A program made the translations under genes and the position numbers. Positions 5,044-50,990 of a stretch of DNA of 50,990 nt are shown here, piece by piece. Under the pieces are notes generated by a model. That model did not search any database, had not been told where the DNA came from, and saw only the letters and a list, made by a program, of their open reading frames with translations. Every line of letters begins with the position of its first letter. The stretch's first letter is position 1. Origin of the DNA: a virus. The DNA lies in the IMG/VR virus record IMGVR_UViG_3300037851_000037, positions 1-50,990 of that record. The stretch is one strand, 5' to 3'.

Positions 5044-6438
5044 ATGGGCGACATTAACAATTTCGTAAAGGTCGTAATCCGGTTACAAACCGGGGGAGTT
5101 ACGCGCGTCGGGTTCGGGACCGCGTTAATCCTGGGCGAACATACCGCGTTCGCTGACCGAATCAAGTTTTATTCCGACCTGTCCGATATGTCCGACGATG
5201 GACTGGACGACAGCCACGGAACGAACGGCGGGTTAGTCTATAACGCCGCCGCCGCGATGTTTTCGCAACGTCCGCGACCGGACCGAATCGCCGTCGGGCG
5301 GGTCCAGGTTAACGGAATCAAGGCGACCGTCCTTAACGCGGTAGAGGGTCGGGAATATAAGGCGACTTTGGACGGGACGGATTACACTTACACCGCCGTA
5401 ACCGGGGACGACGCCGACGACATCGCCGCCGGAATCGCCGCCTTGTTAAACGCGGTTTCCGGGTTTACGTCGGCGGGCGTCGGGACCGGCGGGGAATATA
5501 CCCTGGTCCTGGATACGCCCGGAACGTTTTTCCAGTTCGCGGTCGACGACAATCAAACCGCCGCGCCCGCCGCGTCGGGGAACGAAGATTTCGACGACGC
5601 CCTGGTCGCCGTCCAGGATTCGTCCGACGACTGGTATGGACTGGTTATTACGTCGCGCGGCGGCACCGTCCAGGAAGCGGTCGCCGACGCGGTCGAGGCG
5701 ATGGAAAGTCCGAAATTTTTCCGCCTTGCGTCGAATGACGGGGACATTATAAATTCGACCCCGGCGGACGATACGACATCAATCGCGCGCCTGTTACAGT
5801 TAAAGGCGTTAAATCGGTCGTCCGTTATCTATCATTCGAAAGCGGACGGAACGATGGACGACGAATTTATCGACGCCGCCTGGACCGCGATGTCCCTGGG
5901 GTTCGACCCCGATGTCGAAACCGCGACGGACAAGTTTAAAACCCTGGTCGGGATTACACCGGACGACCTGTCCGCGACCCAAAGGGCGAACGCAATCGGA
6001 ACCGAGGAATCGCCGACGTCCGGGAAAAACGCGAACGTTTATACCACGGTCGCCGGAAAGAATATCACCCAGTCGGGGATGACCGCGTCCGGCGAATGGA
6101 ACGACATCATTTTCGGCGCGGACTGGTTAAAGGTCCGAATCGAGGAACGGATTTTTAACGCGTTCGTTCGGAACCCGAAGTTACCGTATACGAACGGCGG
6201 AATACTCGCAATCGTCGGCGAAATCCGCGCCCAGTTACAGATCGGACAGCGGACCCAGTTTTTAGCGTTCGACGAACAATGGGATAAAACGTTCGGGTTC
6301 CTGTTAACGTATCCCGACGTTTCCCAGGTCGATTCCATCGACAAGGCGAACCGTATCTTAAAGGGGATTTCGTTTACCGCGACGGTCGCGGGCGCAATCC
6401 ACGCCGCGAAACCCATCAACGGAACGTTAGTTCCGTAA
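5044..6438 (+). CDS. Contractile tail sheath protein (DUF3383-like)
   Basis: 464 aa. The N-terminus MGDINNFVKVVIRLQTGGVTRVGFGTALILGEH resembles DUF3383-type sheath proteins. It is followed by tube, chaperone and tape-measure genes and by a strong hairpin. Confidence 0.7.
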   Translation: MGDINNFVKVVIRLQTGGVTRVGFGTALILGEHTAFADRIKFYSDLSDMSDDGLDDSHGTNGGLVYNAAAAMFSQRPRPDRIAVGRVQVNGIKATVLNAVEGREYKATLDGTDYTYTAVTGDDADDIAAGIAALLNAVSGFTSAGVGTGGEYTLVLDTPGTFFQFAVDDNQTAAPAASGNEDFDDALVAVQDSSDDWYGLVITSRGGTVQEAVADAVEAMESPKFFRLASNDGDIINSTPADDTTSIARLLQLKALNRSSVIYHSKADGTMDDEFIDAAWTAMSLGFDPDVETATDKFKTLVGITPDDLSATQRANAIGTEESPTSGKNANVYTTVAGKNITQSGMTASGEWNDIIFGADWLKVRIEERIFNAFVRNPKLPYTNGGILAIVGEIRAQLQIGQRTQFLAFDEQWDKTFGFLLTYPDVSQVDSIDKANRILKGISFTATVAGAIHAAKPINGTLVP

Positions 6439-24804: not shown

Positions 24805-24891
24805 TGGTCCCGGAACCGGGAATCGAACCCGGACGCCCATACGGGCGAGGGATTTTAAGTCCCTTGCGTCTACCAGTTCCGCCATTCCGGG
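24805..24891 (-). tRNA. tRNA-Leu, anticodon UAA (reads UUA/UUG), class II long variable arm, CCA encoded
   Basis: The reverse complement folds manually as follows. Acceptor CCCGGAA/TTCCGGG. D arm GCG-GAACTGGTAGA-CGC. Anticodon stem AGGGA/TCCCT with loop CT-TAA-AA. Variable arm CGCCCGTATGGGCGT. T arm CCGGG-TTCGATT-CCCGG. Discriminator A plus CCA. Total 87 nt. Confidence 0.9.
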
Positions 24892-24933: not shown

Positions 24934-26517
24934 TTACTTTTTCCGGGCGGGCGCGTCGATGTAATAAAGTTCGCGTTTCGCCCGCGTAATCGCGACGTAA
25001 ATTAAATTCGTTTCCTGGTCGACTTGCCAGTCCTTTTTCGCCCAGGGGGACGGCATTAACTGAAACCGCCCCAGGATAAAAACGCGGTCGAATTCAAGTC
25101 CCTTTGATTTATGGACCGTCGCAAGGGTTAACCGGCGACCGCCGTTATCGTCGAACATTTTTTCCAGGTCGGCGATTAACGCGGGGACAGTCCGCCGGGT
25201 TTCCGGTAAATTTCCGATTACGGTTAAAATACAGTCGACGCGGTCGGCGACCTGTTCCGCCTTGTCGTCCCGACCTTTGGAAACATATTTCGCGATTTCG
25301 CGGTCCCGATACGCACCCAGTTTTTCGACCAGGGCGTCGACGCCGCGCGCGTTCATTTTCCGAATCAGGGCGACCAGTCCGGTTCCGATTTCGCGTCCCA
25401 GGATACGACAGCCGACGCCCGCGCGAATCAGGGAATACGCAAGGTCGACCAGGGGCGCGGTATTCCGACAAATAATCGCGTCGTCCTGGTTAAACGACTG
25501 GGGACCGAACGCGTCCCCCAGGTCGCGGACGACGCCGTCCGGCGCGCCGTCGAACGATTCCATCGTCGGGACGAATTCCTGGGCGGCGGCGACGACGGCG
25601 CGCGGACAGCGATACGAAACCGACAGGGGGAACGATTGCGCGCCGAATTCGTCCTTTATCCGTTTCATCGCGTTACTGTCCGCGCCCCGGAACCCGTAAA
25701 TCGCTTGTCGCGAATCGCCGACCGCGACCAGTCGTCCGGTTCCCGGTTTTAACATCCGGGGGAGTAACGCAAGTTGAACGCCGTTCGTATCTTGCGATTC
25801 GTCGACGAAAACGTAATCGTTCGTCCAGAAACGGACATTACGAATCAAGGGCATAAAAAGCATATCGTCGAAATCGATTACCTTGTCGGCGGTTTCGATG
25901 GACCGTTTAAGGACCCGGCGGCAAAGGTCGAACGCGCGGGTTTCGTCGGCGTCGTCCGATTCCAGGTAAACGTCGAAATGGTCCGCAAGGGCGAACCAGG
26001 ACGCGGGGTCGTCGGCGATTAGATAACCCATCCCCGCGCCCTTTGACAGGGATACCATTTTCAAAACGAACGCCTGATACATCGCGCGGTCGTCCTGGAC
26101 CAGTTCGTCGGTTTCCCGTTCCTGGATACCGGGTTCCGCCGACCGTATCGACGGGAACCCCGAATCGTCGCCGAATTCCGCGCGTAAAACGTCGTCCAGG
26201 ATACCGCGACATTTATTCGCGTCGACCTGGATTTTAACGCCGCGCCCGACGAAATTCGTCCAGGCGGAAAACCCCTGGGAATGGAACGTCGCCGCGCGAC
26301 AGTTTTTCGGGACGCGGGTTTTCAGTTCGTCGGCGATGGACTTGTTAAAGGCCAAAAAAGTAACCGACTTGTCGGACGGGATACGTTCCAGGGCGGCGAC
26401 GATGGTTGATGTTTTCCCGGACCCGGCGACGGCTTCAATAACGGCGGAACCGCGACCGGCGTCGATAAAGTCGAAAATCGCGACCTGATACGGGGACGGT
26501 TTAAAATTCTTTTCCAT
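24934..26517 (-). CDS. UvrD/Rep-like SF1 DNA helicase (copy 1)
   Basis: Motifs AVAGSGKTST, FVDESQDTN, GDSRQAIYGFRGA, TVHKSKGLEFDRVF and YVAITRAKREL. Start set at the ATG at 26517 (MEKNFKPSPYQ) with SD aaaaggacaggaaATG. The 13 upstream track codons translate a conserved UTR box. Confidence 0.88.
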   Translation of the reverse strand: MEKNFKPSPYQVAIFDFIDAGRGSAVIEAVAGSGKTSTIVAALERIPSDKSVTFLAFNKSIADELKTRVPKNCRAATFHSQGFSAWTNFVGRGVKIQVDANKCRGILDDVLRAEFGDDSGFPSIRSAEPGIQERETDELVQDDRAMYQAFVLKMVSLSKGAGMGYLIADDPASWFALADHFDVYLESDDADETRAFDLCRRVLKRSIETADKVIDFDDMLFMPLIRNVRFWTNDYVFVDESQDTNGVQLALLPRMLKPGTGRLVAVGDSRQAIYGFRGADSNAMKRIKDEFGAQSFPLSVSYRCPRAVVAAAQEFVPTMESFDGAPDGVVRDLGDAFGPQSFNQDDAIICRNTAPLVDLAYSLIRAGVGCRILGREIGTGLVALIRKMNARGVDALVEKLGAYRDREIAKYVSKGRDDKAEQVADRVDCILTVIGNLPETRRTVPALIADLEKMFDDNGGRRLTLATVHKSKGLEFDRVFILGRFQLMPSPWAKKDWQVDQETNLIYVAITRAKRELYYIDAPARKK

Positions 26518-30682: not shown

Positions 30683-32194
30683 TTAAAAGTCGTCCCCCCG
30701 TTCATCGACGCGCGGCGGGTCCAGGTCGCCGTCGATTTTTTTCGGTTCGGGAATGTTCCATACGCGAACGCACTTCCCTTTAATATTAAACTGGGAATGT
30801 CCGGCGTTTAAGGCGCGCAGTATTCGCCACGCATCCCGCGCCGTTTTTATTTGATAAAATCTGTTTTGGTCCAGGAATTTTAACAGGTCGCCCGCCCGGA
30901 AATAAACGCGCCCGTCGTCGACCCATGGTTTCCCCAGGATGATTTCGTCGCGGGACCGGGCGACCCCCCGGTCCGTCGCGAACTGGTCGACCAGGGTTAA
31001 AAACTGTCCGTCGATTCCGGCGTCCAGGGGCGCGTCGATGGTTTCGACCCTTTGTAATAACCTTTGAATAATCCCGTCCCATACTTTCGGACGGACTTTC
31101 GATGGTAATATGTTCATCCGTTCGATAATCAGGACGCGGAACCGTTCCTGGGATAACAGGTCGACCGTCGACGGAAGTTCGACCCGGACCCCATCGACAT
31201 CGATAATCCAGGTCGGCGGCGTCGTTTCAATTTTTACCAGTCCGCCGAAAGTAACGCCGGGGTCGTCGTCGTTTCCGGCGATACCGAATTCCCGCGTTAA
31301 ACATATCGTCCGGTTACAAACGCCGGAAATCGGATGGTCGTTACATTTATACGAATACGACTTTCGGCGTAACGATTTTATTATCGTTTGAATTTCCCGC
31401 GACTGTAACGGCGGGTCCATAAAACGCGAATTCATTTCGTCGACTTTGGTTTCCCAGTCGTCGCCGTATTTTTTCCGGGCGAAAACGCCCAGGTTAAAAA
31501 GTCCGTTATTGCGGGTCCCGTCCGGGAACCCGGCGGTCGACAGCGTTTGTAAACAGGGCGGCGCGCCGTCCAGGAAAACGTCCCCCGGCGTTTTTATCGC
31601 GACCAGGGCGGCGACCGATACCTGGACCGCGTCGGCGTAATCTAGGAACGCGGACAGGGACAGGCGCGCGCCGTCGCGAATCGCGTATCTGTCCGTTTTA
31701 TCGCCGCCGAAATATGGAATGTTTATCCAGTTCCCGACGTCGTCGTCGGACGCTAACTGGACTTGTTTCGGGAAAATTTCGACTTTTCCGAACCCCAGGG
31801 TTATCGCCCATTCCATCAATTTTTCGCGGACCAGTTTCGCGGGCGTCGGTTCGGATGTAAAAAGGTATAGATGTATTCCGCCGGATTTCGTCCGACAAAT
31901 AACCAGGGGGAAACCGAAACCCTTTATCCTGGTTTCGATTTCCCCCATATTTAAACCGTCGTATATGTCGACATCAATCGCGCCGAAACGACAGGTCGCG
32001 TCGTCGTCGATGGGAACGATTCCAAGTCCCGCCGCGCCTTTGATATGGGCGGCGTAAAGGTCCCGCGTAACCGGACCCTGGACTGTCCGCGCGCGTCCCT
32101 GGACTTTATTTTTCGCGATGTCCTTTTTCCCGATGGTATAAATTCCATACGCGCGGGACAATCCGCGAAACCTGTCGGCGAATCGTTCGACCAT
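30683..32194 (-). CDS. Archaeo-eukaryotic-type primase-polymerase (PrimPol) with a C-terminal extension
   Basis: 503 aa. Contains LGIVPIDDDATCRFGAIDVDIYD (DxD) and RTKSGGIHLYLF (sGGxH). No Walker A motif, so no fused helicase. Confidence 0.75.
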   Translation of the reverse strand: MVERFADRFRGLSRAYGIYTIGKKDIAKNKVQGRARTVQGPVTRDLYAAHIKGAAGLGIVPIDDDATCRFGAIDVDIYDGLNMGEIETRIKGFGFPLVICRTKSGGIHLYLFTSEPTPAKLVREKLMEWAITLGFGKVEIFPKQVQLASDDDVGNWINIPYFGGDKTDRYAIRDGARLSLSAFLDYADAVQVSVAALVAIKTPGDVFLDGAPPCLQTLSTAGFPDGTRNNGLFNLGVFARKKYGDDWETKVDEMNSRFMDPPLQSREIQTIIKSLRRKSYSYKCNDHPISGVCNRTICLTREFGIAGNDDDPGVTFGGLVKIETTPPTWIIDVDGVRVELPSTVDLLSQERFRVLIIERMNILPSKVRPKVWDGIIQRLLQRVETIDAPLDAGIDGQFLTLVDQFATDRGVARSRDEIILGKPWVDDGRVYFRAGDLLKFLDQNRFYQIKTARDAWRILRALNAGHSQFNIKGKCVRVWNIPEPKKIDGDLDPPRVDERGDDF

Positions 32195-34052: not shown

Positions 34053-34616
34053 TTAAATGTAAGCGAACATCCGACCGTCGGCGATTCGTTCGACCGTATC
34101 GACGGGAACCCCGAATCGTCCGGCGACGGCGGCGAAATCCTGTCCCAGTTCCAGGGCGCGTTTAATCCAGTAAGCGTCGTTTTCCATCGCGTCCGGCGTC
34201 CGACCGGGAAAAAACTGTAACCAGTTCGATAAGTCCTGGTTTCGGTCCCAGGTAACAAGGCGCAAGTTCCCGAATCGATTGTCCGCCCGGTCGCCGTTTA
34301 TATGATGGATAACGAATTCATCGGGAACGAAAAACCCGGCGACGATACGGAAAACAAGGGAATGGGCGGCGATGGAAAATTTCGCCTTTGTCCCGTTCGT
34401 AAATGTCAAGTCGACGCGGCGATAACCGTTCGACGACAAATGTTTGTCCGCAAGTTTCGCCGGACCGGGGACGACGACCCGACCCCATCGATTCGCGTAT
34501 GGAAATTTAACGCGGTAAATTCGACCCGCGCCGTCGACGGCGAAAATCCCCTGGGCGATATGCCAGTCGATAACCTGTCGACGTTTCCATTCGACGACTT
34601 TGGATTTACCGTCCAT
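34053..34616 (-). CDS. HNH endonuclease (free-standing, homing-type)
   Basis: 187 aa. Contains HSLVFRIV...VIHHINGDRADNRFGNLRLVTWDRNQ (H-N-H). Its start overlaps the SNF2 3' end by 11 nt. Confidence 0.8.
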   Translation of the reverse strand: MDGKSKVVEWKRRQVIDWHIAQGIFAVDGAGRIYRVKFPYANRWGRVVVPGPAKLADKHLSSNGYRRVDLTFTNGTKAKFSIAAHSLVFRIVAGFFVPDEFVIHHINGDRADNRFGNLRLVTWDRNQDLSNWLQFFPGRTPDAMENDAYWIKRALELGQDFAAVAGRFGVPVDTVERIADGRMFAYI

Positions 34617-40447: not shown

Positions 40448-41236
40448 TTACTTGTCCCCCCTGGGAAGTCCATTCCAAAGGTCGACGGCGCGGGATTTCA
40501 GGTCGGAAACCGGACCGGACATTTCGCAAGTCAGACATTTAACCGACCATTTATTCGTTACGTTTCCCAGGTCGATGATTTCGAAATCATGGTCCATCCC
40601 GCAATTCGGACAGGCGACGAACCGGGGTTTCGCGTTCCATTCGCGGACCGCGCCCTGGACGGACGACGCCCAGTCGCCGGTCGTCCCGCAATCTGGACAA
40701 TGGACGCGGAACTGTTTAAACGACCGGAACGTTTCGTCGTCCATCAAAAGGTCGAAACCCTTTTCCCGGCGACAGGACGGACAGGGCGATTTTTTGAAAC
40801 GGTTAAACGACCGGACGGCGTCCTTTGCCTTTTCCGCCGTCGACTGTTCCGACGCGACGGACAAGGTAACATCACCCTGTAATTCGGCGTAATGTTCCGC
40901 GCGGTAATTTTCGGCGATTCGTTTCGCGGTTTCCAGGTCGACGCCCGACGCGATGGTCGCGATTATTCCGGCGTCCGAACAAAGGATAACCGAATACGGC
41001 CGCGGATAAACGAACGACGCGACGACCGCGTCCAGGTCGCCGCCGTTATACTGTCCCAGTTTCAGGAACGGACATTCGCGAACTGATTCGACGAACGCCG
41101 CCCAGGACGGCGCGTTAACGCCGACGCGGTCGGACTGGTCCTGGACGCGCGAATACAGGTCGCCCAGGGTTATCGATTCCGCGCGGTCGGCCATTAAACC
41201 GACCGTCGCCGCCTTGATTAACTCTTGATTGTTCAT
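40448..41236 (-). CDS. Protein with two tandem Lar-like (restriction alleviation) zinc-ribbon domains
   Basis: 262 aa. CPSC...VHCPDCGTTGDWASSVQGAVREWNAKP and ACPNCG...VKCLTCEMSGPVSDLKSRAVDLWNGLP match the Lar pattern CPxCG...C..C...A...WN. Confidence 0.6.
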   Translation of the reverse strand: MNNQELIKAATVGLMADRAESITLGDLYSRVQDQSDRVGVNAPSWAAFVESVRECPFLKLGQYNGGDLDAVVASFVYPRPYSVILCSDAGIIATIASGVDLETAKRIAENYRAEHYAELQGDVTLSVASEQSTAEKAKDAVRSFNRFKKSPCPSCRREKGFDLLMDDETFRSFKQFRVHCPDCGTTGDWASSVQGAVREWNAKPRFVACPNCGMDHDFEIIDLGNVTNKWSVKCLTCEMSGPVSDLKSRAVDLWNGLPRGDK

Positions 41237-42298: not shown

Positions 42299-42730
42299 AT
42301 GGATAAAAAAGAACAATGTCGAATTAAATTACTGGAATATTTAGGCGACCCCGAAAATGAACCCCTGTCCCGCGCCGGACTTGCGTCCCGCGTCCTGGGG
42401 TTACGAAACCGAACCGGCCTTTATCGAGTATTCACAGTCCAGGAATTGTCCGACATCGAATCGGAAGCGTTAAAGGTCCGGCGTGAACGATGCGCGCGAC
42501 ATTCGTTTTCCGTCGACCGGGCGTTACTGAAAAAGGCGACGGCGGGGGATGTCAAGGCGGCGGAACTGTATTACAAGCGGATAGAGGGATGGAACGAAAA
42601 ACAGGTCGTTTCCATCGCCCCGTCCCTGGACGAAATCCGCGCCCTTGCGGTCGCCCAGGGTTACGACCCCGACGAATTCGTCGCCGTTTACCTGGGCGTT
42701 AAATCAAAGGGTCGGGGAATTGTCGAATAA
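42299..42730 (+). CDS. terS: Terminase small subunit (HTH DNA-binding)
   Basis: 143 aa. It is the first gene of the rightward unit and lies directly upstream of terL. KATAGDVKAAELYYKRIEGWNEKQ resembles the conserved TerS motif. Confidence 0.65.
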   Translation: MDKKEQCRIKLLEYLGDPENEPLSRAGLASRVLGLRNRTGLYRVFTVQELSDIESEALKVRRERCARHSFSVDRALLKKATAGDVKAAELYYKRIEGWNEKQVVSIAPSLDEIRALAVAQGYDPDEFVAVYLGVKSKGRGIVE

Positions 42731-44066
42731 CAGTAACGCCGCCGACCTGATTCCGACGACCGGGGAACCCGACATCGCCCTGGTCGAAACCCTTTACATA
42801 ATGCGACGAAAACGCGCGGAAAGAACCCGCGCCGCGTTACTGGACCATCAAAAGGTCCCGACCGGACCCTGGTCGACCTGGGTTATTATGGCGGGTCGCG
42901 GGTCCGGGAAAACATACGCGGGCGTTAACGCGGTCGTCGAACATTTACGGGAATTCGGTCCAGACGCCTGGGTTATGATTATCGCCCCGACCGGCGACGA
43001 CGCGCGGGACGTTATTTTAGAGGGTCCGTCCGGGTTATGGACCCTGTTCCGAAACGAATTCGTTTCCTATCATCGAACCCTTTTAAAATTGAAACATATC
43101 GGCGGCGGACAGGTAAAGGTTTTTTCCGGCGACGAACCGAACCGATTACGCGGTCCCCAGTCGACCCTTTTATGGATTGATGAAATCGCAATCCAGGACG
43201 ACGAAACAATCGATAACGCCCGGTTCGGAAACCGCCTGGGACCCGACCCGAAGTTTATCGCGACGACGACCCCGAAAAAACGGGCGTCGTTAAAGTCGTT
43301 ACTAAACGAACCCGGCGTCGTCGTTACCAGGGCGACGACGGACGACAATCCCCATTTGTCCGAAAAGGCGCGCGTTCGCCTTTATGATAAATACGGCGGG
43401 ACCCGCCTGGGACGACAGGAATTAAAGGGCGAACTGATAGAGGACATCGACGGCGCGATGTTTAAATCCGCCTGGATAGACGACGCCCGCGTTTCTGTCG
43501 CGCCGGAACTGGAACGGGTCGTCGTCGCAATCGACCCGGCGGCGTCGACCCCGGCGTCGAACGGCGCGGGGAAAAAGGCGCGCCGGAAAAAGGGCGCGGA
43601 AACCGGACAGGTCGTCGCCGGTCGCGGGGTCGACGGGGATTATTACGTCCTGTTCGGCGACGGATACCGCGTAACCCCTGGGACCTGGGCGCGCAAGGCG
43701 ATTGAATTATACGACCAGTTCGGCGCGGACCATATCATCGGCGAAAAGAATAATGGCGGCGATATGGTCGAACATACCATCCGACAGGAATGGGACGACG
43801 CGCCTTTTTCGACGGTATGGGCGTCCAGGGGGAAGTCGACCAGGGCGGAACCTGTCGCGTTACTTTGCGAACAGGGTCGCGTACATTTCGTCGGCGTATT
43901 CCCCGAACTGGAAAACCAGTTATACGCGTTTCCGGTAGAGGACGAATTAAAGGACATACTGGACGCGTTCGTATGGGCGATAACGTTTTTAATGGACGAC
44001 GACGGAAACGAAACCCTTTTAATGTCAAGGTTAGGCGATGGGAAATTTAGCAATTCGGCGAACTGA
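42720..44066 (+). CDS. terL: Terminase large subunit (ATPase plus nuclease)
   Basis: Walker A IMAGRGSGKTYAG, Walker B TLLWIDEIA and nuclease Asp VVAIDPAAS. The start is proposed at TTG 42720 (SD aaagggtcgggg). The track start at 42645 would overlap terS by 86 nt, so the start is uncertain. Confidence 0.85.
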   Translation: MSNNSNAADLIPTTGEPDIALVETLYIMRRKRAERTRAALLDHQKVPTGPWSTWVIMAGRGSGKTYAGVNAVVEHLREFGPDAWVMIIAPTGDDARDVILEGPSGLWTLFRNEFVSYHRTLLKLKHIGGGQVKVFSGDEPNRLRGPQSTLLWIDEIAIQDDETIDNARFGNRLGPDPKFIATTTPKKRASLKSLLNEPGVVVTRATTDDNPHLSEKARVRLYDKYGGTRLGRQELKGELIEDIDGAMFKSAWIDDARVSVAPELERVVVAIDPAASTPASNGAGKKARRKKGAETGQVVAGRGVDGDYYVLFGDGYRVTPGTWARKAIELYDQFGADHIIGEKNNGGDMVEHTIRQEWDDAPFSTVWASRGKSTRAEPVALLCEQGRVHFVGVFPELENQLYAFPVEDELKDILDAFVWAITFLMDDDGNETLLMSRLGDGKFSNSAN

Positions 44067-45411
44067 TAAACGACCGGCGGTTCCAGGGACCGTGATAATG
44101 GGTCCGGTAAACCGCGCGTCGAACGTTATCCCGTTCCAGGAAAAGTCCGTTCCATCGTATAAACTGATTCCGTCGACCATCGCCGACCGTCCGATATATA
44201 CATCCTGGTCGACGGATGTCGCGGTCCAGTTCGGTTATAAGGCGGCGACCTGGGTTTACGCCTGTATCACGAAACGAATGAAGGCGGCGGCGTCGGTTCC
44301 CTTGAAAACCCAGGTCCAGGTCGACGGCGTATGGGTCGACCGTTACGTCCCCGGATTGTCCGATTTAATCACCCGCCCGAACAATAAATATTCGTTCCAG
44401 GATTTAACCGAAACGGTCGTTTCCCATTTAGATTTAGGGGGGAACGCCCTGTTATCGAAAGTCCGGGTCCGGGGGAAACCCGCCGAATTATGGGTTTTAC
44501 GCCCGGACAAAATTCGCCCGGTTCCGTCGACAAAGGATTACATCGGTTATTACGAATACACCGTCGACGGGAAAAAGATAAAACTGGACCCGCGCGACAT
44601 TATCCATTTTCGTTTCATCGACCCGGCGAACGAATACTGGGGGATTTCGCCGTTAATGGCGGCGGGGAAAACCGTCGATATGGAAGTCGCCGCCGTAAAC
44701 TGGAATTATTCTTCGATGAATAACCGCGCCGTCCCCGATGGTATGGTAACGTTAAAAAAGGAACTGTCGCCGAAACAGTTCGCGGAAGCGAACGCGATGT
44801 TAGAAAATCAGTTAATGGGACCGGCGAACGTCCATCGCCCGTTTGTTATGGGTTACGATGCCGATTATCGTCGGTTCGCCTTAACCCCGGCGGAAATGGA
44901 TTTCGTAAAGTCCCGCGTTTTAACCCGCGAAGAAATTTGCGCGGCGTTCGCGGTCCCGCCGCCCCTGGTCGGGATTTACGACAAGGCGACATTAACGAAC
45001 ATTGAAACCGCCCGCGTTATTTTTTGGGCGGATACGATGGTCCCGTTACTGGACGACATCCTGGACGTTTATAACTTTTGCCTGTCCCCCGAATTCGGCG
45101 CGAACGTCCGAATCGTTTACGATACGTCCGGCGTCCAGGCGTTACAAGTCCTGTTCCAGCGCAAGGTCGAAACTGGGACGAAACTGTTCGGTATGGGCGT
45201 CCCGTTCAATACAATAAACAAACGCCTGGGACTAGGGTTCGACGACATCCCCGGCGGCGATGTCGGTTACATCCCGTCGTCGATGGAACCGTCGACCGGC
45301 GGCGGCGACCTGGGGGACATCCCCGGCGGGTCCCCGCCCGGTATGGACGACGAACCCGAACCGGACGAAATCGACGAACCGGACCCCGACGACCTGGATA
45401 CCGAAGAATAA
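44038..45411 (+). CDS. Portal protein (HK97-family type)
   Basis: 457 aa. Position after terL, motifs WVYACITKRMKAAASVPL and GNALLSK...WGISPL, and an acidic C-terminus. An alternative start is at 44098. Confidence 0.8.
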   Translation: MGNLAIRRTDKRPAVPGTVIMGPVNRASNVIPFQEKSVPSYKLIPSTIADRPIYTSWSTDVAVQFGYKAATWVYACITKRMKAAASVPLKTQVQVDGVWVDRYVPGLSDLITRPNNKYSFQDLTETVVSHLDLGGNALLSKVRVRGKPAELWVLRPDKIRPVPSTKDYIGYYEYTVDGKKIKLDPRDIIHFRFIDPANEYWGISPLMAAGKTVDMEVAAVNWNYSSMNNRAVPDGMVTLKKELSPKQFAEANAMLENQLMGPANVHRPFVMGYDADYRRFALTPAEMDFVKSRVLTREEICAAFAVPPPLVGIYDKATLTNIETARVIFWADTMVPLLDDILDVYNFCLSPEFGANVRIVYDTSGVQALQVLFQRKVETGTKLFGMGVPFNTINKRLGLGFDDIPGGDVGYIPSSMEPSTGGGDLGDIPGGSPPGMDDEPEPDEIDEPDPDDLDTEE

Positions 45412-45418
45412 ATAACGG

Positions 45419-47677
45419 ATGAAACCGCGCCGTAAATTGATAACGCCGATTCCCCGCGTTTACGCGGCGGGACCGGCGGTCGTCGCCCGACGACCCGGAC
45501 TGTTCGTCGTAAAGGCGGCGGGCGATATTTACGGCGCGGGGATTACGTCCCCCCTTGCGCGCCCGACCGGAACCGGCGCGCCCCGACCGGCGCGACAGTT
45601 TCCCCAGGGTCCGTTCCCCTGGGAAAAACCCATCCCGATAAATTCCCGCGACATCGAAGTCGAATTACGGCGTTATATGGACCCGGCGGAAAAACGGGTC
45701 GCCCGCGTTTTATATTCGACCTGGAACGCCGAACGGGACGCGATTAAATACCAGGAATTACGGAACGCGGTCCGCGACGGCGACCTGGACCCCGCCTGGA
45801 TTGCGCGATGGAAAAGGGATTACGCGAATTATGTAAATACGACCCTGGACCCGGAATGGCGAAACGGATGGGTCCAGGGCGGCGACTATACCGCGAAAAA
45901 TGTCGCCCGCGCCCTGGGCGTTTCGTATGATTTTCCGAAAGTCGGAAAACGGATGGATAACTGGGTTTCCGCGCGCGGCGCGGAATTAACCGTTGATCTA
46001 TACCAGGAACAGGTCCGCGCCGTCCGTAACATCGTCCGACATTACGCCGTCGACCAGGGCGTCGGACCGAAAGTCCTGGACAAGTATATCCGTCCGGTTA
46101 TCGGTTTAACCGAACGGGAAGCGGCGGCGGTCGCGCGCCGTCGGGACCTGTTAACCATCGCCGGGTTATCCGAAAAGGAAATAACCCATCGGACGGAACA
46201 GTATTCGGGGTTCCTGTTACGGCGGCGCGCGGAACGAATCGCCCGGACGGAAACCGCGTTCGCGTATGAATACGGAACATTCGACGGAATTAAAACCGCC
46301 CAGGAACAGGGATTATTTAACGATTACATCGTAATCAAAAAATATTCGACATCGGCGGACGAACGGACCTGTCCATTTTGTTCGGAACTGGACGAACAAA
46401 CCATCGGAATCGATGAAACGTTCCCCGGCGTAACCGACAAATTACCGAACGTCCTGGTCCCGCCGGTTCATCCGAATTGTCGATGTACTGTAATTTACGA
46501 AGTCGTCCCGATGTCCCAGGTCGCGCGGAACAATGTCAAACCGGCGAAACCCCATCCGGGCGCGCCCGCGTCCCCGCCGACGACCGATGTCCCGCCGTCC
46601 GTCGACGACATCCCGCCGAATGTTACCGCGCCGCCGATTCCGACATCGACGAACCCGACGCCGAAACCGCCGACGCCCGCGCCGAAACCGATTCCCGCGC
46701 CGCCGGTAACGATTACGGTTCCGCCCGCGCCGCCGACGCCGGGGATTACGACGACCCCGCCGGAACCGATTCCACCGAAACCCAGGAAACCGCGCGCGCC
46801 GAAACCCGCCGCGCCGCCGACGGATGTCCCGCCGTCGAACGTCGTCCCGGAAAAGGGATGGTTCCCGGCGGAATCGATACCGGAAGCGCGCGCCCGCCTG
46901 GAACGACATATCGCCGACGGCGGTACGGGATACATTGGACCGTATGGAAAACCTTTTCCATATTCCCCTGGAAAGTCGTCGGTTACGTTCGAAAAGGAAA
47001 TGTCGGACGTTCGCCGCCTGGAAATGTTAAATACTATCGACGCCGAAATTACGCGATGTCGTTCCATCGGGGACGCCTGCCCGAATATTTTACAGGTTAA
47101 ATCATTGGACAATAGGGGCGCGGCGGGGATGTATTCGCCGCCGAGATTGAAATATAAAAAAGGAAAAGGGTTCGTCGTCGAAAGTCCGATAATTTCGACG
47201 AACCGCCGGTTAACCGGCGCGCCTTTGGGGACCGGCGAAAATTACGCGGCGATGTTAACGAAACGGTCGTCGATAGATGGGACCGTTCGTGACTGGGCGG
47301 CGTTACGCGTTTATGAGGAAACAAAGTTATCGACAGATTTAATCGGGTTAACAATCCGCCACGAATGGGGACATTTATATCATAGACATTGCGGTTATGA
47401 CGCCGCCGACAAGGTCGGACAGGCGTTAACGAAAGAATGGTTCGACTTTTACATTAAGCATAAAAAAGCGGGGACGTTACGTAATTACGTTTCTGAATAT
47501 GCGCGGGATACTGAGGGGGAAGCGTTCGCCGAAATGTTTACCATTTATTCGTCGCCGAAGTTCGTCCCCGGTTCCATCGATGCTGTTTTCGGACAGGGGT
47601 CGGAAAACCTAATGTCCCAGATTATTAAAAAGGGGACGGAAATCGCCCGTAAACAAATAGGGGTCCCGAAAGCATAA
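45419..47677 (+). CDS. MuF / SPP1 gp7-like head morphogenesis protein fused by a ~100-aa Pro-rich linker to a C-terminal HExxH zinc-metalloprotease-like domain
   Basis: 752 aa. MuF signature ARTETAFAYEYG...ERTCPFCSELDEQ...VPPVHPNCRCTVIY. Linker PKPPTPAPKPIPAPP.... C-terminal HEWGH (47360-47374) and, about 55 aa later, EGEAFAEMF. Confidence 0.75.
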   Translation: MKPRRKLITPIPRVYAAGPAVVARRPGLFVVKAAGDIYGAGITSPLARPTGTGAPRPARQFPQGPFPWEKPIPINSRDIEVELRRYMDPAEKRVARVLYSTWNAERDAIKYQELRNAVRDGDLDPAWIARWKRDYANYVNTTLDPEWRNGWVQGGDYTAKNVARALGVSYDFPKVGKRMDNWVSARGAELTVDLYQEQVRAVRNIVRHYAVDQGVGPKVLDKYIRPVIGLTEREAAAVARRRDLLTIAGLSEKEITHRTEQYSGFLLRRRAERIARTETAFAYEYGTFDGIKTAQEQGLFNDYIVIKKYSTSADERTCPFCSELDEQTIGIDETFPGVTDKLPNVLVPPVHPNCRCTVIYEVVPMSQVARNNVKPAKPHPGAPASPPTTDVPPSVDDIPPNVTAPPIPTSTNPTPKPPTPAPKPIPAPPVTITVPPAPPTPGITTTPPEPIPPKPRKPRAPKPAAPPTDVPPSNVVPEKGWFPAESIPEARARLERHIADGGTGYIGPYGKPFPYSPGKSSVTFEKEMSDVRRLEMLNTIDAEITRCRSIGDACPNILQVKSLDNRGAAGMYSPPRLKYKKGKGFVVESPIISTNRRLTGAPLGTGENYAAMLTKRSSIDGTVRDWAALRVYEETKLSTDLIGLTIRHEWGHLYHRHCGYDAADKVGQALTKEWFDFYIKHKKAGTLRNYVSEYARDTEGEAFAEMFTIYSSPKFVPGSIDAVFGQGSENLMSQIIKKGTEIARKQIGVPKA

Positions 47678-47901
47678 TGGAACCGTTATCGACAAAATGT
47701 CGGCGATGTAACTGGTTCATCCGGTCGCGATGGGACGACCGCCTGGAACGGTTCGTCAATTCCTGTCAAGCGTATCCCGAAACCGCCGGTAAAGAAATCC
47801 CGTATACGATTTTCCTGGAACGCGAAACCCATAACCTTGTCCGCGACGGACAGGTCGGTATTTTTACCTTTACACCGTTTATCGAATCAGGTAACATTTA
47901 A
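47677..47901 (+). CDS. Small hypothetical protein (74 aa, CxxC)
   Basis: ORF coupled by TAATG to the upstream gene. Confidence 0.55.
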   Translation: MEPLSTKCRRCNWFIRSRWDDRLERFVNSCQAYPETAGKEIPYTIFLERETHNLVRDGQVGIFTFTPFIESGNI

Positions 47902-47912
47902 CAGGGGATAAA

Positions 47913-49133
47913 ATGATGGACTTTAAAACCTTTGCCTGTCAATTCGACGTTAAGGCGGACGGCGACGGTCGGACGATAACCGGATACGCGTCGACATTCG
48001 GTCCGCCCGCCGACGCCGTCGGCGATGTCGTCGATACCGGCGCGTTCAAGAAAACGATAAAAGAGGGGGGACCCCCGAAGTCGCGTCGGATTAAACTGTT
48101 ATGGTTACATCGCGACCCCCTGGGACTTCCGACCGTTCTTAAAGAGGACGACCGGGGTTTATATTTCGAGGCGCGCGTTACGAAAACCCAGTTCGGTAAC
48201 GACTGCCTGGAATACATCCGGGACGGCGTCGTCGATAAAATGTCCATCGGATACAATACAATCCGCGCGACGAAAAACCCGGAAACGGGTTACAACCATT
48301 TAAAAGAAATCGCCCTGTTCGAAATTTCGCCGGTTCCGTTTCCGGCGAACCTTGCGACGGACATCCTGGGCGTAAAGTCGTTAATCCAGTCCGGCGCGGT
48401 TACGCCCCAGGCGTTCATTAACGCCCTGGTTTCCGCGTTCGGATTGAAACAGGACGCGGCGGGATTGTTCGTTCCCGAATCGGAAAAGGGCGCGACCCGG
48501 TTCCGCGATTTACCTTTGACGCCCCGGGACCGCGCCTGGGACGCGACCGCCGCCGACCGTCGGGTCCGCGAATGGGCGGACGCCGCCGACGGTCCGAACG
48601 AAAATTATTCCCGCGCGTTTTTCTGGTTCGATAACGAAAATCCTGAAAATTTCGGGTCGTATAAACTGGGGTTCGCCGACATCGTTAACGACGAACTGGT
48701 CGCCGTCCCCCAGGGAATCATCGCCGCCGCCGCCGCGTTACAAGGCGCGCGCGGCGGGGTCGACATCCCGGACGACGATGTCGCCGGGGTCCGCGCCCAT
48801 ATCGCCCGGTATTATGAAAAAATGTCCCGCGAATTCGACAATCCAAATATAATCCCGCCCTGGGACCGTTCCGACCCGACGGTCGCCGACCTTGCGGAAA
48901 AGGTCGACGCCCTGTCGTTACGACTGGACGCCCTGGGCGGTTCGTCGGTTTCACCTGTCCCCCAGGGCGCGCCGTCCGACCAGGACACCCGCCCGACGGA
49001 TACGCCGAAATCCGACCCGACCCCCGGCGACCCGGTCCCCGACCAGTCGCCCGAAACCGCGACAGGCGACCAGTTAAAGTCCCTGTCGGAATCAATCGAA
49101 CAATCCCTTAACCTTTTGAGAAAAGGAAACTAA
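47913..49133 (+). CDS. Prohead protease (HK97/S78 family) with a C-terminal scaffold-like extension
   Basis: 406 aa. Contains ITGYASTFGPPADAVGDVVDTGAFKKTI, LLWLHRDPLGLP and FEISPVPFPAN. The C-terminal half is acidic and helical. Confidence 0.8.
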   Translation: MMDFKTFACQFDVKADGDGRTITGYASTFGPPADAVGDVVDTGAFKKTIKEGGPPKSRRIKLLWLHRDPLGLPTVLKEDDRGLYFEARVTKTQFGNDCLEYIRDGVVDKMSIGYNTIRATKNPETGYNHLKEIALFEISPVPFPANLATDILGVKSLIQSGAVTPQAFINALVSAFGLKQDAAGLFVPESEKGATRFRDLPLTPRDRAWDATAADRRVREWADAADGPNENYSRAFFWFDNENPENFGSYKLGFADIVNDELVAVPQGIIAAAAALQGARGGVDIPDDDVAGVRAHIARYYEKMSREFDNPNIIPPWDRSDPTVADLAEKVDALSLRLDALGGSSVSPVPQGAPSDQDTRPTDTPKSDPTPGDPVPDQSPETATGDQLKSLSESIEQSLNLLRKGN

Positions 49134-49136
49134 CGT

Positions 49137-50555
49137 ATGGAACTGAAACAAGTTGTCGACCAGTTACAGGCGCAAGTCGCCGAAATGTTAAAACTGGTCC
49201 AGGACAGGGACGCCCAGTTAAAGGAAATCGGCGCGGTTCGTTCCGACCTTGCGAAGCGTATCGACGCCCAGGACGCCCGGATTATGGAACTGGTCGAACA
49301 GGCGAAAGCCGCGACCGCCCGCGCCGACGAATTAGAGAAAAAGGCGGGTCGCGTTCCGTTCGGCGGCGACGACGCCCCGAAGTCGTTCGGCGAACAGTTC
49401 ATCGGGTCCGAACAGTACAAGGAAATGGTCGCCCGTAAATCCCTGTCGTCCCATCCGTTCGAAATCAAGGGGTCGATGTTAAAGGCGATTACGTCCGACC
49501 CACTGTCGGCGGGCGCGATGGTTATCCCGATGCGCGTCCCCGAAATCATCGTTCCGCCGACCCGCGCGTTACGGTTACGCGACCTGTTAACCGTCGATTC
49601 GACCGGGTCGAACGCGGTCGAATATGTCCAGGAAATCGGGTTTTCGAACCTGTATACCATCCTGACAGCCGATGCGCTCGCCGCCGCGACGGACATCGTC
49701 GTCGAATCGGTCGCCGGACTTTATGTCGGACAGACCATTAACATCGGCGGGGAAAACCGCGTTATCGCCGCCGACGGAATCGACGAAGATACGAACACCG
49801 TAATCATCACCGTCGGGTTAACCGCCGGTAAAACCGCCGGGGACCCGGTTACGTCGAAATTCTTCGCCCCGACCGCCGAAGGGAAAACGAAACCCGAAGG
49901 GAACATCGCGTACGAACTGAAATCCGTTCCGGTTCGGACCATCGCGCACCTGATTCCGGTTTCCCGTCAAATTTTGGCGGACGCGTCCCAGTTACGGGGA
50001 CAGATTGATTCCCGTCTGATTTACGGACTGTCCCTGGTCGAGGAGGAACAAGTCCTTTACGGCGACGGGACCGGCGAAAACATCCTGGGGATTATGGCGA
50101 ACATCGCCTGTCAATCTTACAACTGGTCCCAGGGGAAAGTCGGGGATACCGTTATCGACGCGATTCGGCGCGCGATGACCCTTGCGCGTATCGCCGAATA
50201 TCCGGTCGACGGCGTCGTCGTTCATCCGACGGACTGGGAAGAAATCGAACTGACAAAGGATTCCGAATCCCGGTATATCTGGATTTCGGTTAACGACGGC
50301 GGACAGCCCCGGTTATGGCGGGTCCCGGTCGTCGATACGACCGCGATTCGGGTCGGCGAATTCCTGGTCGGCGCGTTCAAAATGGGCGCGACCCTTTACG
50401 ACCGCGAACAATCGATGATTCGGGTTTCCGATTCTCATAAAGACTTTTTCGGGAAAAACCTGCTCGCTCTGCTCGCCGAGGAACGCGCCGCCCTTGCGAC
50501 GTTCCGCCCGGAAGCGTTTGTTAAGGGCGCGTTCGACGAAGCCCCGTCCGTATAA
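49137..50555 (+). CDS. Major capsid protein (HK97 fold) with an N-terminal delta-like coiled coil
   Basis: 472 aa. N-terminal coiled coil MELKQVVDQLQAQVAEMLKLVQ..., then LRLRDLLTVDSTGSNAVEYVQE, which is typical of HK97-type MCPs. It follows the protease gene and is followed by a strong hairpin. Confidence 0.85.
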   Translation: MELKQVVDQLQAQVAEMLKLVQDRDAQLKEIGAVRSDLAKRIDAQDARIMELVEQAKAATARADELEKKAGRVPFGGDDAPKSFGEQFIGSEQYKEMVARKSLSSHPFEIKGSMLKAITSDPLSAGAMVIPMRVPEIIVPPTRALRLRDLLTVDSTGSNAVEYVQEIGFSNLYTILTADALAAATDIVVESVAGLYVGQTINIGGENRVIAADGIDEDTNTVIITVGLTAGKTAGDPVTSKFFAPTAEGKTKPEGNIAYELKSVPVRTIAHLIPVSRQILADASQLRGQIDSRLIYGLSLVEEEQVLYGDGTGENILGIMANIACQSYNWSQGKVGDTVIDAIRRAMTLARIAEYPVDGVVVHPTDWEEIELTKDSESRYIWISVNDGGQPRLWRVPVVDTTAIRVGEFLVGAFKMGATLYDREQSMIRVSDSHKDFFGKNLLALLAEERAALATFRPEAFVKGAFDEAPSV

Positions 50556-50624: not shown

Positions 50625-50948
50625 ATGATTCGGTCAAAACAAACCAGGACATCGGCGGTCGCCGTCCGGTCGTTTACCGGAAAAGAAGGGCGATTACGTC
50701 CTGGACAGCGATTCGAAACGACCGTCGCGCGCCTGGACGAATTACGGCGCGCCGGACTTGCGCGCGCCGTAAACGAAAAAGCGGTTGCCGCGCCGTCGAA
50801 TAAAATGGTTTCGCCGCCGAAAAACAAGGCGGCGTTTTCCGTTTCGCCCGCGCCCGCGTCGTCCGACCAGGGCGACCAGGGCGACCAGTCGCCGCCCGCG
50901 CCCGCGCCCGCGAAATCCCCGAAAAAGGGGAAAAGAAAAAGGGGTTAA
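50625..50948 (+). CDS. Small basic / low-complexity protein (107 aa) downstream of the capsid gene
   Basis: SD acagggggacaggATG. The C-terminus is SSDQGDQGDQSPPAPAPAKSPKKGKRKRG. Its 3' end lies in the terminal repeat. Confidence 0.6.
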   Translation: MIRSKQTRTSAVAVRSFTGKEGRLRPGQRFETTVARLDELRRAGLARAVNEKAVAAPSNKMVSPPKNKAAFSVSPAPASSDQGDQGDQSPPAPAPAKSPKKGKRKRG

Positions 50949-50990
50949 TCGATGATACAAACGAAACAGGCGTTCGCCGTTCGGGATGAA

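Follow-up and report, generated by a model that had tools for sequence, protein, structure and literature searches.

The window analyzed here is the whole 50,990-nucleotide stretch of IMG/VR virus record IMGVR_UViG_3300037851_000037, a myovirus genome that forms a 50.9-kb circle when closed. Its head module encodes a 752-amino acid (aa) protein in which a MuF module is joined through a proline-rich linker to a C-terminal domain that appears to be related to the zinc metallopeptidase anthrax lethal factor (LF). The genes run in the order TerL (42645-44066), portal (44038-45411), the fusion (45419-47677), a 74-aa open reading frame (ORF), an S78 prohead protease (47913-49133), and an HK97-type capsid protein (49137-50555). 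The fusion gene thus adjoins those of the terminase and portal, the position typical of a MuF protein, and the synteny of the head module is also kept in the orthologous locus L243 and in L364. The features of the locus are as follows.

45419-47677, + strand: whole gene of the MuF–proline-rich linker–LF-like zinc metallopeptidase fusion, 752 aa (from the ORF list)
45644-46528, + strand: MuF / SPP1 gp7-type minor head protein module, about aa 76-370 (Pfam, TIGR, and PHROG matches)
46469-46486, + strand: HPNCRC motif closing the MuF module, aa 351-356 (read in the sequence)
46526-46858, + strand: proline-rich linker, aa 370-480, 111 aa (computed composition: 38% Pro, 13% Thr)
46850-47674, + strand: C-terminal LF-like (ATLF / MtfA-type) gluzincin domain, aa 478-752, with a conserved catalytic core at about aa 640-740 (assigned by family homology)
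47357-47374, + strand: R647-H648-E649-W-G-H652, predicted zinc-binding His pair and general-base Glu (invariant in both family alignments)
47492-47533, + strand: S692-x-Y694 ... E701-x-F703-x-E705, predicted catalytic Tyr and third zinc ligand Glu (invariant columns)
47677-47901, + strand: 74-aa ORF of an unnamed small-protein family, overlapping the stop codon of the fusion gene (TAATG; HMM match)

Genome context and the MuF module

The phage looks virulent. It encodes its own PolA, an AEP primase, two UvrD helicases, and an SNF2 helicase, and no integrase was found among the scanned ORFs, which include all those of at least 300 aa. A small recombinase could still be encoded by one of a few ORFs of 190-260 aa that lie outside the scan. 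A blastn search with the head module gave as its sole match a 220-bp stretch of the capsid gene of Paraburkholderia phage IPK, and thus identified no close cultured relative or host. The fusion protein itself is 100% identical to a 752-aa fusion called on Logan contig SRR12687606_66069.

The initial annotation described an N-terminal MuF/SPP1 gp7 signature ending in HPNCRC, followed by a proline-rich linker of about 100 aa, and both descriptions hold. Pfam PF04233 matches aa 248-359 (E=2.6e-16, 60.8 bits against a cut-off of 29.6), TIGR01641 (phageSPP1_gp7) scores 41.9 bits, above its 39.65 cut-off, and PHROG head-morphogenesis families span aa 76-371 with E-values down to 5e-33. The linker is likewise proline-rich in the homologues P0002, P0014, and P0019. 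Physical presence in the capsid, bound to the portal, is known for SPP1 gp7 only (PMC5576092).

The C-terminal domain carries an invariant set of catalytic residues

The span from 46850 to 47677 corresponds to aa 478-752 plus the stop codon. The annotation placed HEWGH at nucleotides 47360-47374 and EGEAFAEMF about 55 residues further on, and this is borne out: HEWGH (aa 648-652) is the sole HExxH in the protein, EGEAFAEMF occupies aa 699-707 (47513-47539), and Glu701 lies 53 residues past His648. An exhaustive phmmer search with the domain found 20 relatives, with the window protein as the self-hit P0001. Across 15 aligned family members, the motifs R-H-E-x-x-H, S-x-Y, and E-x-F-x-E are invariant. 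Non-conservation of the His and Glu residues, named by the annotation as a ground for rejecting a metallopeptidase, is not what we see; His, Glu, and Tyr are the same in every aligned homologue. These members are otherwise only 20-35% identical, yet every catalytic residue, including the general-base Glu and the Tyr, is retained, which, to judge from the alignment, is the signature of selection for catalysis.

Several other searches were empty. A word-indexed homologue search returned no match, not even to the protein itself, whether the query was the C-terminal domain or the 15-sequence alignment; among GenBank phages, tblastn with the domain produced a single, spurious match; and a search for related loci using the single domain sequence gave none. 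Related loci were instead gathered by back-translated motif scans. In 240 IMG/VR loci, 135 LF-like ORFs were counted, and a MuF module is also present in at least 52 of these. MuF–LF-like fusions are common in viral metagenomes. The relatives include giant proteins of 1.3-5 kaa with 2-8 copies of the domain among other domains, and some are found beside ADP-ribosyltransferase and HINT domains.

Kinship with lethal factor is seen through the family

The Pfam ATLF family (PF07737; MEROPS M34) has a gathering score of 27.4 bits and does not match the window protein at E<=1. Nine of the 15 aligned family domains, by contrast, match ATLF at E<0.01 (best 4.4e-7), and three homologues exceed the gathering score: P0018 (44.6 bits), P0010 (39.7 bits), and P0019 (27.8 bits). 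When the family profile is searched against the PDB, the top seven matches are all LF (E=4.6e-5 to 1.2e-2), with LF at 26.9 bits versus 15.9 bits for 9urd_A. A PDB search with the single domain sequence gives LF a best E-value of 1.1.

The profile alignment pairs H648/E649/H652, Y694, and E701 with LF His686/Glu687/His690, Tyr728, and Glu735, and E705 with Glu739, the pairings of Tyr728, Glu735, and Glu739 being counted back from the end coordinate 742 of 1j7n_A. The roles of the LF residues, including Glu735 as a zinc ligand, are described in PMC5668564, whose reference list cites Tonello et al. for Tyr728 and Glu735. The same paper describes the active site of MtfA as closely related to that of LF.

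Two sister families of the LF-like type give the window sequence slightly higher scores than ATLF does: Peptidase_Mx1 (PF15890; 18.2 bits, E=1.7e-3, below the 25.6 cut-off) and TIGR04549 (26.1 bits, E=4.6e-6, below the cut-off of 75). We nevertheless reject membership in these two families: both scores are below cut-off, a 70-residue core alone aligns, and there is no signal peptide, the domain being the C-terminal part of a phage head protein. Peptidase_M90/MtfA is matched by some family members, and Pfam MPTase-PolyVal by neither the window protein nor any aligned member.

These results support placing the C-terminal domain in the LF-like gluzincin family, as judged from homology. It is a divergent member whose own sequence reaches no curated threshold. 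The proposed ATLF-type gluzincin assignment therefore stands at the level of the family, through its ATLF matches and the PDB ranking, and fails for the window sequence taken alone, which misses the ATLF model. Because this divergent LF-like subfamily is missed at Pfam and PHROG thresholds, such fusions are under-counted.

The fold search is at most weakly supportive

An alignment-based AlphaFold model of the domain reached a pLDDT of 67.8 and a pTM of 0.69, against a pLDDT of 40.6 for a single-sequence model; confidence is good only past the linker. Domain residues 160-270 have a pLDDT of 82-96, and the catalytic half is helical as expected. The helices bearing the motifs are confidently modelled, but the sheet region falls below 50, and the N-terminal half is poorly modelled.

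Foldseek of the alignment-based model against solved structures gave no significant match; the best was LF, at E about 2-5. All LF matches, at these non-significant E-values, superpose with an rmsd of 3.7-5 Å over about 105-113 columns. The only low-rmsd matches are LF (105-107 columns, 3.7-3.9 Å) and a phage protein in BFVD that UniProt names "Lethal factor" (E=0.22, probability 0.95). The fold search may thus be taken as weakly supportive of an LF-like reading.

A small Cys3His family recurs behind LF-like protease genes

The 74-aa ORF is translationally coupled to the fusion gene through the TAATG overlap read in the sequence. Its family has the invariant columns C8, C11, C30, A32, I41, P42, and H52. 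An HMM built without the window copy recovers it with 31.6 bits (E=2.7e-9), as the sole match among 328 ORFs of the window, and the locus of the closest orthologue (L243) has a family member in the same slot (5855-6061). The profile has no relative in Pfam, NCBIfam, or the PDB and matches only phrog_33375, a PHROG of unknown function.

The family directly follows 34 of 110 LF-like genes but only 2 of 1626 other ORFs (Fisher p=5e-41). Counted from the small genes, eight of nine follow an LF-like gene. The association holds with or without a MuF module, and the same small neighbour also accompanies LF-like proteins of 250-400 aa that stand alone. The small gene is present after about 31% of LF-like genes and absent after about 69%, and in some genomes it forms tandem arrays. 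This small Cys3His family, recurring behind LF-like protease genes, is the new element reported here.

An exclusive link of the small ORF to the protease was set aside, since a genome scan placed the wider family also behind ADP-ribosyltransferase fusions, behind a domain with an HxHP..S..D motif, and in ordinary chromosomal contexts. A JAMM-like identity for the latter domain was likewise dropped; it came from a regular expression alone, and neither Pfam nor the PDB confirmed it.

The likeliest role of the 74-aa protein is that of an accessory to the protease, acting as an inhibitor or immunity-like partner, or as a helper in folding, metal handling, or packaging. More tentatively, the small proteins could form an undescribed, widespread zinc-binding family in which one subfamily is the dedicated partner of virion-delivered LF-like proteases. 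Such a partner, a stoichiometric inhibitor or a metal or folding chaperone, would keep the protease silent or packaging-competent until ejection. Other subfamilies would work with different effectors packaged in the head, in which an ADP-ribosyltransferase is fused to MuF, minor-capsid-2, or portal. We regard this wider scheme as possible rather than probable. If it is true, phages, apparently virulent ones included, carry a two-gene module consisting of a packaged effector and its keeper.

Proposed role and alternatives

We propose that the fusion is a virion-packaged effector, in which a MuF handle and a tether carry an LF-like protease that is ejected to cleave proteins of the host or of rival elements; we give this reading a probability of roughly 55%. 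By analogy, the MuF/gp7 module would act as the packaging handle, and the fusion would be built into the procapsid beside the portal that is encoded just upstream. The linker would tether the zinc endopeptidase domain of about 270 aa. In this domain, H648 and H652 on the active-site helix and E701 on a later helix are predicted to bind zinc, E649 is the predicted general base, and Y694 probably corresponds to the catalytic Tyr of LF. A few copies would travel out of the head together with the DNA, passing the portal and tail channel while extended or partly unfolded, in a state similar to that in which LF crosses the anthrax pore. The ejected copies would then refold, rebind zinc, and cleave proteins of the host or of competing elements at the start of infection. 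Against this reading, the S78 prohead protease of the same phage might cut the fusion.

The enzyme might instead work on the phage itself, as a self-processing or maturation protease that cuts its own linker, the MuF module, or head-internal proteins in the infected cell or procapsid, rather than host targets. Exactly this has been proposed for zincin-like peptidases in polyvalent proteins, as in the processing of P1 DdrB (PMC5512222). Cleavage could plausibly take place in the linker, which is long, exposed, and rich in Pro, Thr, and Lys, and the giant relatives with 2-8 interspersed copies fit a release of modules. In the window, however, the fusion holds no second effector domain to be set free, a dedicated prohead protease is encoded next door, and self-processing has no obvious purpose in the stand-alone LF-like proteins with the same neighbour. 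We consider this unlikely. Distinctly unlikely, in our judgment, is a polymorphic toxin in the strict sense, with a growth-inhibiting protease aimed at attacked bacteria and the 74-aa protein as the immunity protein or inhibitor that guards the producer cell. The published model of MuF polymorphic toxins does include downstream immunity genes (PMC5576092), and an LF-like toxin domain is listed elsewhere (PMC3482391); the coupling of the small ORF, its enrichment after LF-like genes from either side and irrespective of MuF, and its tandem arrays, a frequent trait of immunity genes, all point the same way. Against this, the genome looks virulent, with no integrase found, so that protection of a lysogen has no obvious place; the neighbour follows only the minority of LF-like genes given above; its wider family also sits behind ADP-ribosyltransferase fusions and other domains, and in ordinary chromosomal settings; and the published immunity family for LF-like toxins is SuFu-like (PMC3482391), to which the 74-aa protein is unrelated.

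A non-proteolytic function, in which the retained zincin scaffold serves binding or structure in the head or at the portal vertex, or titrates another protein as MtfA does Mlc, has a precedent in that MtfA, a relative of LF, works largely through binding a regulator. The invariance of all catalytic residues despite 20-35% identity makes it very improbable. The probability that HEWGH is a chance motif, in a C-terminal extension not homologous to proteases, is negligible. The window sequence alone is sub-threshold, and the word-indexed search was empty, but this reading is refuted by the relatives from the exhaustive search, by the conserved columns, by the Pfam matches reached through homologues, and by the LF profile matches. 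Given the length and composition of the protein, chance alone would yield about 0.008 HExxH motifs, and chance occurrence is in any case irrelevant where the motif residues are invariant across 15 homologous family members.

Proteins injected with phage DNA act ahead of any phage gene expression, which makes them prime candidates for first-strike counter-defence or host takeover. A packaged LF-like protease would belong to this group. To our knowledge, only the ADP-ribosyltransferase and (p)ppApp-synthetase types of MuF-effector fusion have been studied experimentally, and we know of no MuF-linked protease with a known substrate. A literature search for virion proteomics of MuF-metalloproteases returned nothing relevant. 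The window adds a clean two-module example in a complete, virulent-looking 50.9-kb myovirus genome.

Comparison with known systems

MuF-toxin fusions were correctly cited from the start as a known class (PMC5576092, PMC5512222, PMC3482391), and the fusion is a fresh example of the already described MuF-metallopeptidase class (Jamet 2017; Iyer 2017). A survey of 191 MuF toxins found a metallopeptidase domain in 20% and hypothesised delivery with the DNA (PMC5576092). The window protein shares with the MuF polymorphic toxins (Jamet et al. 2017, Zhang et al. 2012) the N-terminal MuF encoded beside terminase and portal, a C-terminal enzyme, and a small gene downstream. Its toxin-type domain also occurs in other polymorphic-toxin families, an anthrax-LF-like metallopeptidase being listed among the toxin domains in polymorphic toxins of the PVC and T2SS types (PMC3482391). 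The published set, however, comes mostly from temperate Firmicutes phages, and in virulent phages no MuF protein carried a known toxin domain (PMC5576092). The window genome, that of a myovirus which encodes its own replication module and shows no integrase among the scanned ORFs, does not fit the temperate-phage pattern underlying the MuF toxin model. Its C-terminal domain would be scored as "unknown" at Pfam thresholds, and the downstream gene lies outside the described immunity families.

Phage polyvalent proteins, in which zincin-like peptidases are the commonest domain and one group is linked by HHpred to LF (4dv8), share the HExxH helix, the downstream Glu helix, and the fusion to MuF or other virion-delivered modules (PMC5512222). 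Their giants carry the domain in multiple copies, as do relatives of the window domain, whereas the window protein is a simple two-module fusion. The catalytic domain of LF, the best solved relative by family profile, shares the HExxH, a Tyr 38-42 residues past the second His, and an E-x-F-A-E helix 7 residues further. Identity is very low, and the window protein has no PA-binding or substrate-docking domains. LF enters through a toxin pore, while the window protein would enter by way of a phage particle, and its substrate would necessarily be prokaryotic. MtfA (Peptidase_M90) and Peptidase_Mx1/TIGR04549 are LF-like gluzincins that align with the window domain over the same 70-residue HExxH...E core. 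They are cellular, MtfA being a cytoplasmic regulator-binding peptidase and Peptidase_Mx1/TIGR04549 ([quoted passage not shown]) comprising Bacteroidota lipoproteins, and the window sequence scores far below their cut-offs.

The cultivated myovirus Flavobacterium phage vB_FspM_lotta8-1 (NC_048829) has the same arrangement in its head module: gp28 combines MuF with HEFGH...EFIAEAF and is followed by gp29, a Cys3His protein. Their annotations read only "structural protein" and "hypothetical protein". Compared with the window, gp28 has a shorter linker, and the relationship in sequence is distant. The conserved small partner gene, together with lotta8-1 gp28/gp29 as a cultivable system, is now pointed out.

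The fusion gene lies in the head module of a complete phage genome

The gene for the putative protease sits within a canonical head module.

Head module and the single tRNA gene of the window
42645-44066, large terminase
44038-45411, portal (PF04860, E=2e-60)
45419-47677, + strand, fusion gene (MuF + domain like anthrax lethal factor, LF)
47677-47901, + strand, 74-aa ORF (partner)
47913-49133, S78 prohead protease
49137-50555, HK97-type capsid protein
24805-24891, - strand, tRNA-Leu (anticodon TAA), between polymerase and helicase genes

Positions 1-127 and 50864-50990 form an exact 127-bp terminal duplication; therefore, the assembly is circularly closed and represents a complete phage genome of ~50,863 bp. 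It encodes a contractile tail (sheath, tape measure, baseplate hub and wedge, and fibres) and replication proteins (family A polymerase, two UvrD-type helicases, AEP primase, SNF2 helicase, and exonuclease). No integrase was detected among the scanned window ORFs, which included all those of at least 300 aa, and the genome looks virulent.

Several other features are apparent. In the 406-aa prohead-protease ORF (47913-49133), the S78 domain is limited to residues 11-152; the long extension C-terminal to it may be scaffold-like. The HK97 capsid domain of the 472-aa capsid protein (49137-50555) follows a ~240-aa N-terminal region, which may be a delta domain because it has weak coiled-coil-type matches. 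ORF 390-1898 encodes a 502-aa protein with tail-protein PHROG matches and contains three tandem 189-bp repeats (761-1275; 72-81% identity), whose 63-aa units probably represent repeats of an Ig-like or decoration domain. The tail-fibre ORF 17642-19657 has several direct repeat families (periods of 60 nt and 174 nt) at 17888-18525. An exact 30-bp direct repeat, CGACCGTATCGACGGGAACCCCGAATCGTC, occurs in the minus-strand replication region at 26140-26169 and again 7.9 kb away at 34091-34120, inside or near the helicase and a small ORF. Also on the minus strand are a primase (30683-32194), the best Pfam model for whose AEP domain is one from the TOTE conflict system, and a 262-aa protein (40448-41236) with a zinc-finger region resembling Lar (restriction alleviation).

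The fusion protein joins a MuF module to an LF-like domain

In the window ORF list, the fusion gene is a 752-aa ORF. Its sole HExxH is HEWGH (residues 648-652; nt 47360-47374), and EGEAFAEMF lies at residues 699-707 (nt 47513-47539). HPNCRC occupies residues 351-356, and proline accounts for 38% of residues 370-480 by computed composition. All coordinates in the initial annotation were correct. Its MuF/SPP1 gp7 assignment also holds: Pfam Phage_Mu_F matches residues 248-359 (E=2.6e-16), NCBIfam phageSPP1_gp7 is matched above its cut-off, and PHROG head-morphogenesis families cover residues 76-371. The N-terminal module is securely MuF.

The C-terminal domain (residues 478-752) alone is nearly invisible to curated libraries. 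It has no match in PHROGs; Pfam gives only Peptidase_Mx1 (18 bits versus a cut-off of 25.6), NCBIfam gives TIGR04549 (26 bits versus 75), and phmmer against the PDB gives a SusD-associated metallohydrolase and lethal factor, each with E of about 1. All of these weak matches are confined to one 70-residue stretch that runs from HExxH to E-x-FAE. A word-indexed protein search with the protease domain (46850-47674) returned nothing, missing even its own protein, and its negative result is uninformative for the family; that protein is present in the contig index and was retrieved by exhaustive search.

Run exhaustively against 1.84 billion representatives, HMMER recovered the 752-aa protein itself and 20 relatives. 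A clear orthologue, P0002 (658 aa), is 38% identical across the domain and has the same layout of MuF, proline-rich linker, and domain. The remaining relatives have the catalytic core in common; among them are six MuF fusions and several proteins with two copies. Seven relatives are 1.3-5 kaa long and contain as many as eight domain copies. A 15-sequence alignment has R647, H648, E649, H652, S692, Y694, E701, F703, E705, and P713 invariant, among them the His/Glu residues (H648, E649, H652, and E701) whose conservation in homologues the initial annotation had made a test of its reading. One polyvalent-type relative is a 1631-aa viral protein (locus L206, 304-5196, - strand) with intein/HINT, ADP-ribosyltransferase (ADPrib_exo_Tox), and two LF-like domains; a small Cys3His gene comes after its gene.

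Homologues match ATLF, the Pfam family of the LF catalytic domain, directly: 9 of the 15 aligned domains do so at E<0.01, and three homologues exceed the gathering score. When the alignment profile was compared with all PDB sequences, the top seven matches were lethal factor (E=4.6e-5 to 0.012) and the eighth was the SusD-associated hydrolase (E=0.11). The family HExxH aligns with HEFGH of LF; with LF numbered backwards from 742, where the 1j7n_A alignment ends, the conserved Tyr lies opposite Tyr728 and the leading Glu of E-x-F-A-E opposite Glu735. The LF zinc ligands are His686, His690, and Glu735, and the general base is Glu687 (PMC5668564); work cited in that paper found Tyr728 and Glu735 essential. 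Other family members also match Peptidase_M90/MtfA, and the MtfA active site is closely related to that of LF (PMC5668564).

An AlphaFold2 model built with the 15-sequence alignment has pLDDT 67.8 and pTM 0.69. Within it, pLDDT rises to 82-96 over domain residues 160-270, the catalytic half, whose helical structure agrees with expectation; the expected sheet region is poorly modelled. The initial annotation had named profile and structure searches as checks; the family profile reaches LF, but Foldseek finds no significant PDB match. The only compact PDB superpositions are with LF (105-107 columns, rmsd 3.7-3.9 A, E 3.5-5.5). In the viral library, Foldseek matches an uncharacterised protein from Caudovirales at E=8.8e-4 and, at E=0.22 (probability 0.95), a phage protein named 'Lethal factor' in UniProt. 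The structural evidence is compatible with an LF-like gluzincin, not independent proof. At the sequence level, profile matches to LF/ATLF and the invariant catalytic residues establish the domain as an LF-like gluzincin, as the ATLF-type reading had proposed.

A small Cys3His protein accompanies the LF-like domain

The 74-aa ORF begins on the last base of the fusion gene's stop codon (TAATG) and, as a single sequence, has no Pfam or PHROGs match. In one IMG/VR locus, too, the MuF-LF-like gene has a similar small ORF after it, and an iterated HMM across viral loci found 56 members among the loci listed. The family has 55-90 aa, the pattern C-x2-C...C-x-A-[FY]-P-x-G-I-P...H, and invariant C8, C11, C30, A32, I41, P42, and H52. 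With an HMM made without the window's copy, the 74-aa ORF scores 31.6 bits (E=2.7e-9) and is the sole match among 328 window ORFs.

Members of the small-protein family
47677-47901, + strand, window
5855-6061, locus L243
5944-6144, locus L242
3920-4141, locus L002

We counted family members starting -40 to +150 nt downstream of non-redundant ORFs of the listed viral loci, a count biased by the choice of these loci by protease motif. A partner directly follows 34 of 110 LF-like ORFs (16/45 with MuF; 18/65 without), none of 10 MuF ORFs without the LF-like domain, and 2 of 1626 other ORFs of at least 150 aa (Fisher p=5e-41 versus LF-like ORFs). At the orthologous locus L243, the partner has the same position and was missed by gene calling owing to its GTG start. 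From the partner side, 8 of 9 top homologues, chosen solely for long contigs and biased in being found by a profile made from protease-linked members, lie directly 3' of a gene that encodes an LF-like domain. Among these is a marine phage that shares the window's order, TerL-portal-MuF/protease-partner-S78-capsid, on 22 contigs. A large protein collection holds 493 clusters of the family; those with a name are all 'hypothetical protein', and the sole Pfam domain among the clusters belongs to an HTH fusion. Neither NCBIfam nor the PDB contains a relative, and the only PHROG match of the family is phrog_33375, of unknown function.

When one genome of each prokaryotic species was scanned with a motif, members of the small-protein family turned up across a very wide range of bacteria and archaea, with an LF-like gene upstream of only a minority of copies. 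Other recurrent upstream neighbours are MuF proteins extended at the C terminus by other long domains, minor-capsid-2 + ADP-ribosyltransferase fusions, and portal + ADP-ribosyltransferase fusions. Upstream MuFs with a recognisable motif have extensions of at least 229 aa in 8/8 cases; plain MuF accounts for 0/8. Since these MuFs are all extended, and ADP-ribosyltransferase fusions occur too, the small protein tracks effector domains, not MuF itself. The tie to the LF-like protease is restricted to one subfamily. One upstream MuF type carries an HxHP..S..D motif in its C-terminal domain; a JAMM reading of this motif was not confirmed.

Chromosomal copies exist, for example in a Rhodothermales group. 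Bacterial MAG contigs L361, L312, L250, L341, L278, and L246 have tandem arrays of two to four small Cys3His paralogues (four in L361, ~2935 to 4103, - strand), an arrangement reminiscent of immunity-gene arrays. The related head module of locus L370 comprises a 1131-aa MuF, a stand-alone LF-like protein of 271 aa, the partner, and an S78_2 protease. Between this protease and the capsid gene, a gene at 4785-4994 carries Pfam Acb2_Tad1_hairpin, a domain known from anti-CBASS and anti-Thoeris sponges.

The partner might be an inhibitor or immunity-like protein, a metal or folding helper, or a packaging adaptor. This undescribed family is the most novel lead.

Possible function

Our account of packaging, ejection, activity, and substrate is a proposal only. 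The proline-rich tether would allow the protease domain to be threaded out together with the DNA; LF itself crosses a narrow pore partly unfolded and is then active again (PMC5668564). Early in infection, the refolded zinc endopeptidase could then cut proteins of the host or of a competitor, in keeping with the injected effector suggested initially.

Other explanations differ in probability. For the zincin-like peptidases of phage polyvalent proteins, autoprocessing or post-injection roles have been proposed (PMC5512222), and a self-processing or maturation protease is an unlikely but serious reading of our domain. Somewhat less probable is a polymorphic toxin for which the small protein provides immunity. 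A non-catalytic scaffold is improbable. That HExxH is a chance motif, with ~0.008 expected in the 752-aa protein, is refuted and has next to no probability.

Comparison with known systems

Scanning IMG/VR with the back-translated motifs EFFAExFxxY and EAFAExFxxY yielded at least 240 loci, in which at least 135 ORFs match the core HMM and at least 52 of those also have MuF. A cultivated example is gp28 of Flavobacterium phage vB_FspM_lotta8-1, a MuF protein with HEFGH...EFIAEAF annotated only as 'structural protein'; gp29 is the partner in the same position.

The initial description of MuF-toxin fusions as a known class agrees with the literature. Polymorphic toxins use MuF as a delivery module (PMC3482391), a metallopeptidase domain occurs in 20% of 191 MuF toxins, and head loading with delivery alongside DNA has been hypothesised for them (PMC5576092). 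Zincin-like peptidases are the commonest domain of phage polyvalent proteins, and one group was tied to LF (4dv8) by HHpred (PMC5512222). As the class is already in the literature, the fusion gene is a divergent new example of it. The 2017 survey found a known toxin domain on MuF in no virulent phage (PMC5576092); compared with the MuF toxins of that survey, the window genome is atypical in that it looks virulent.
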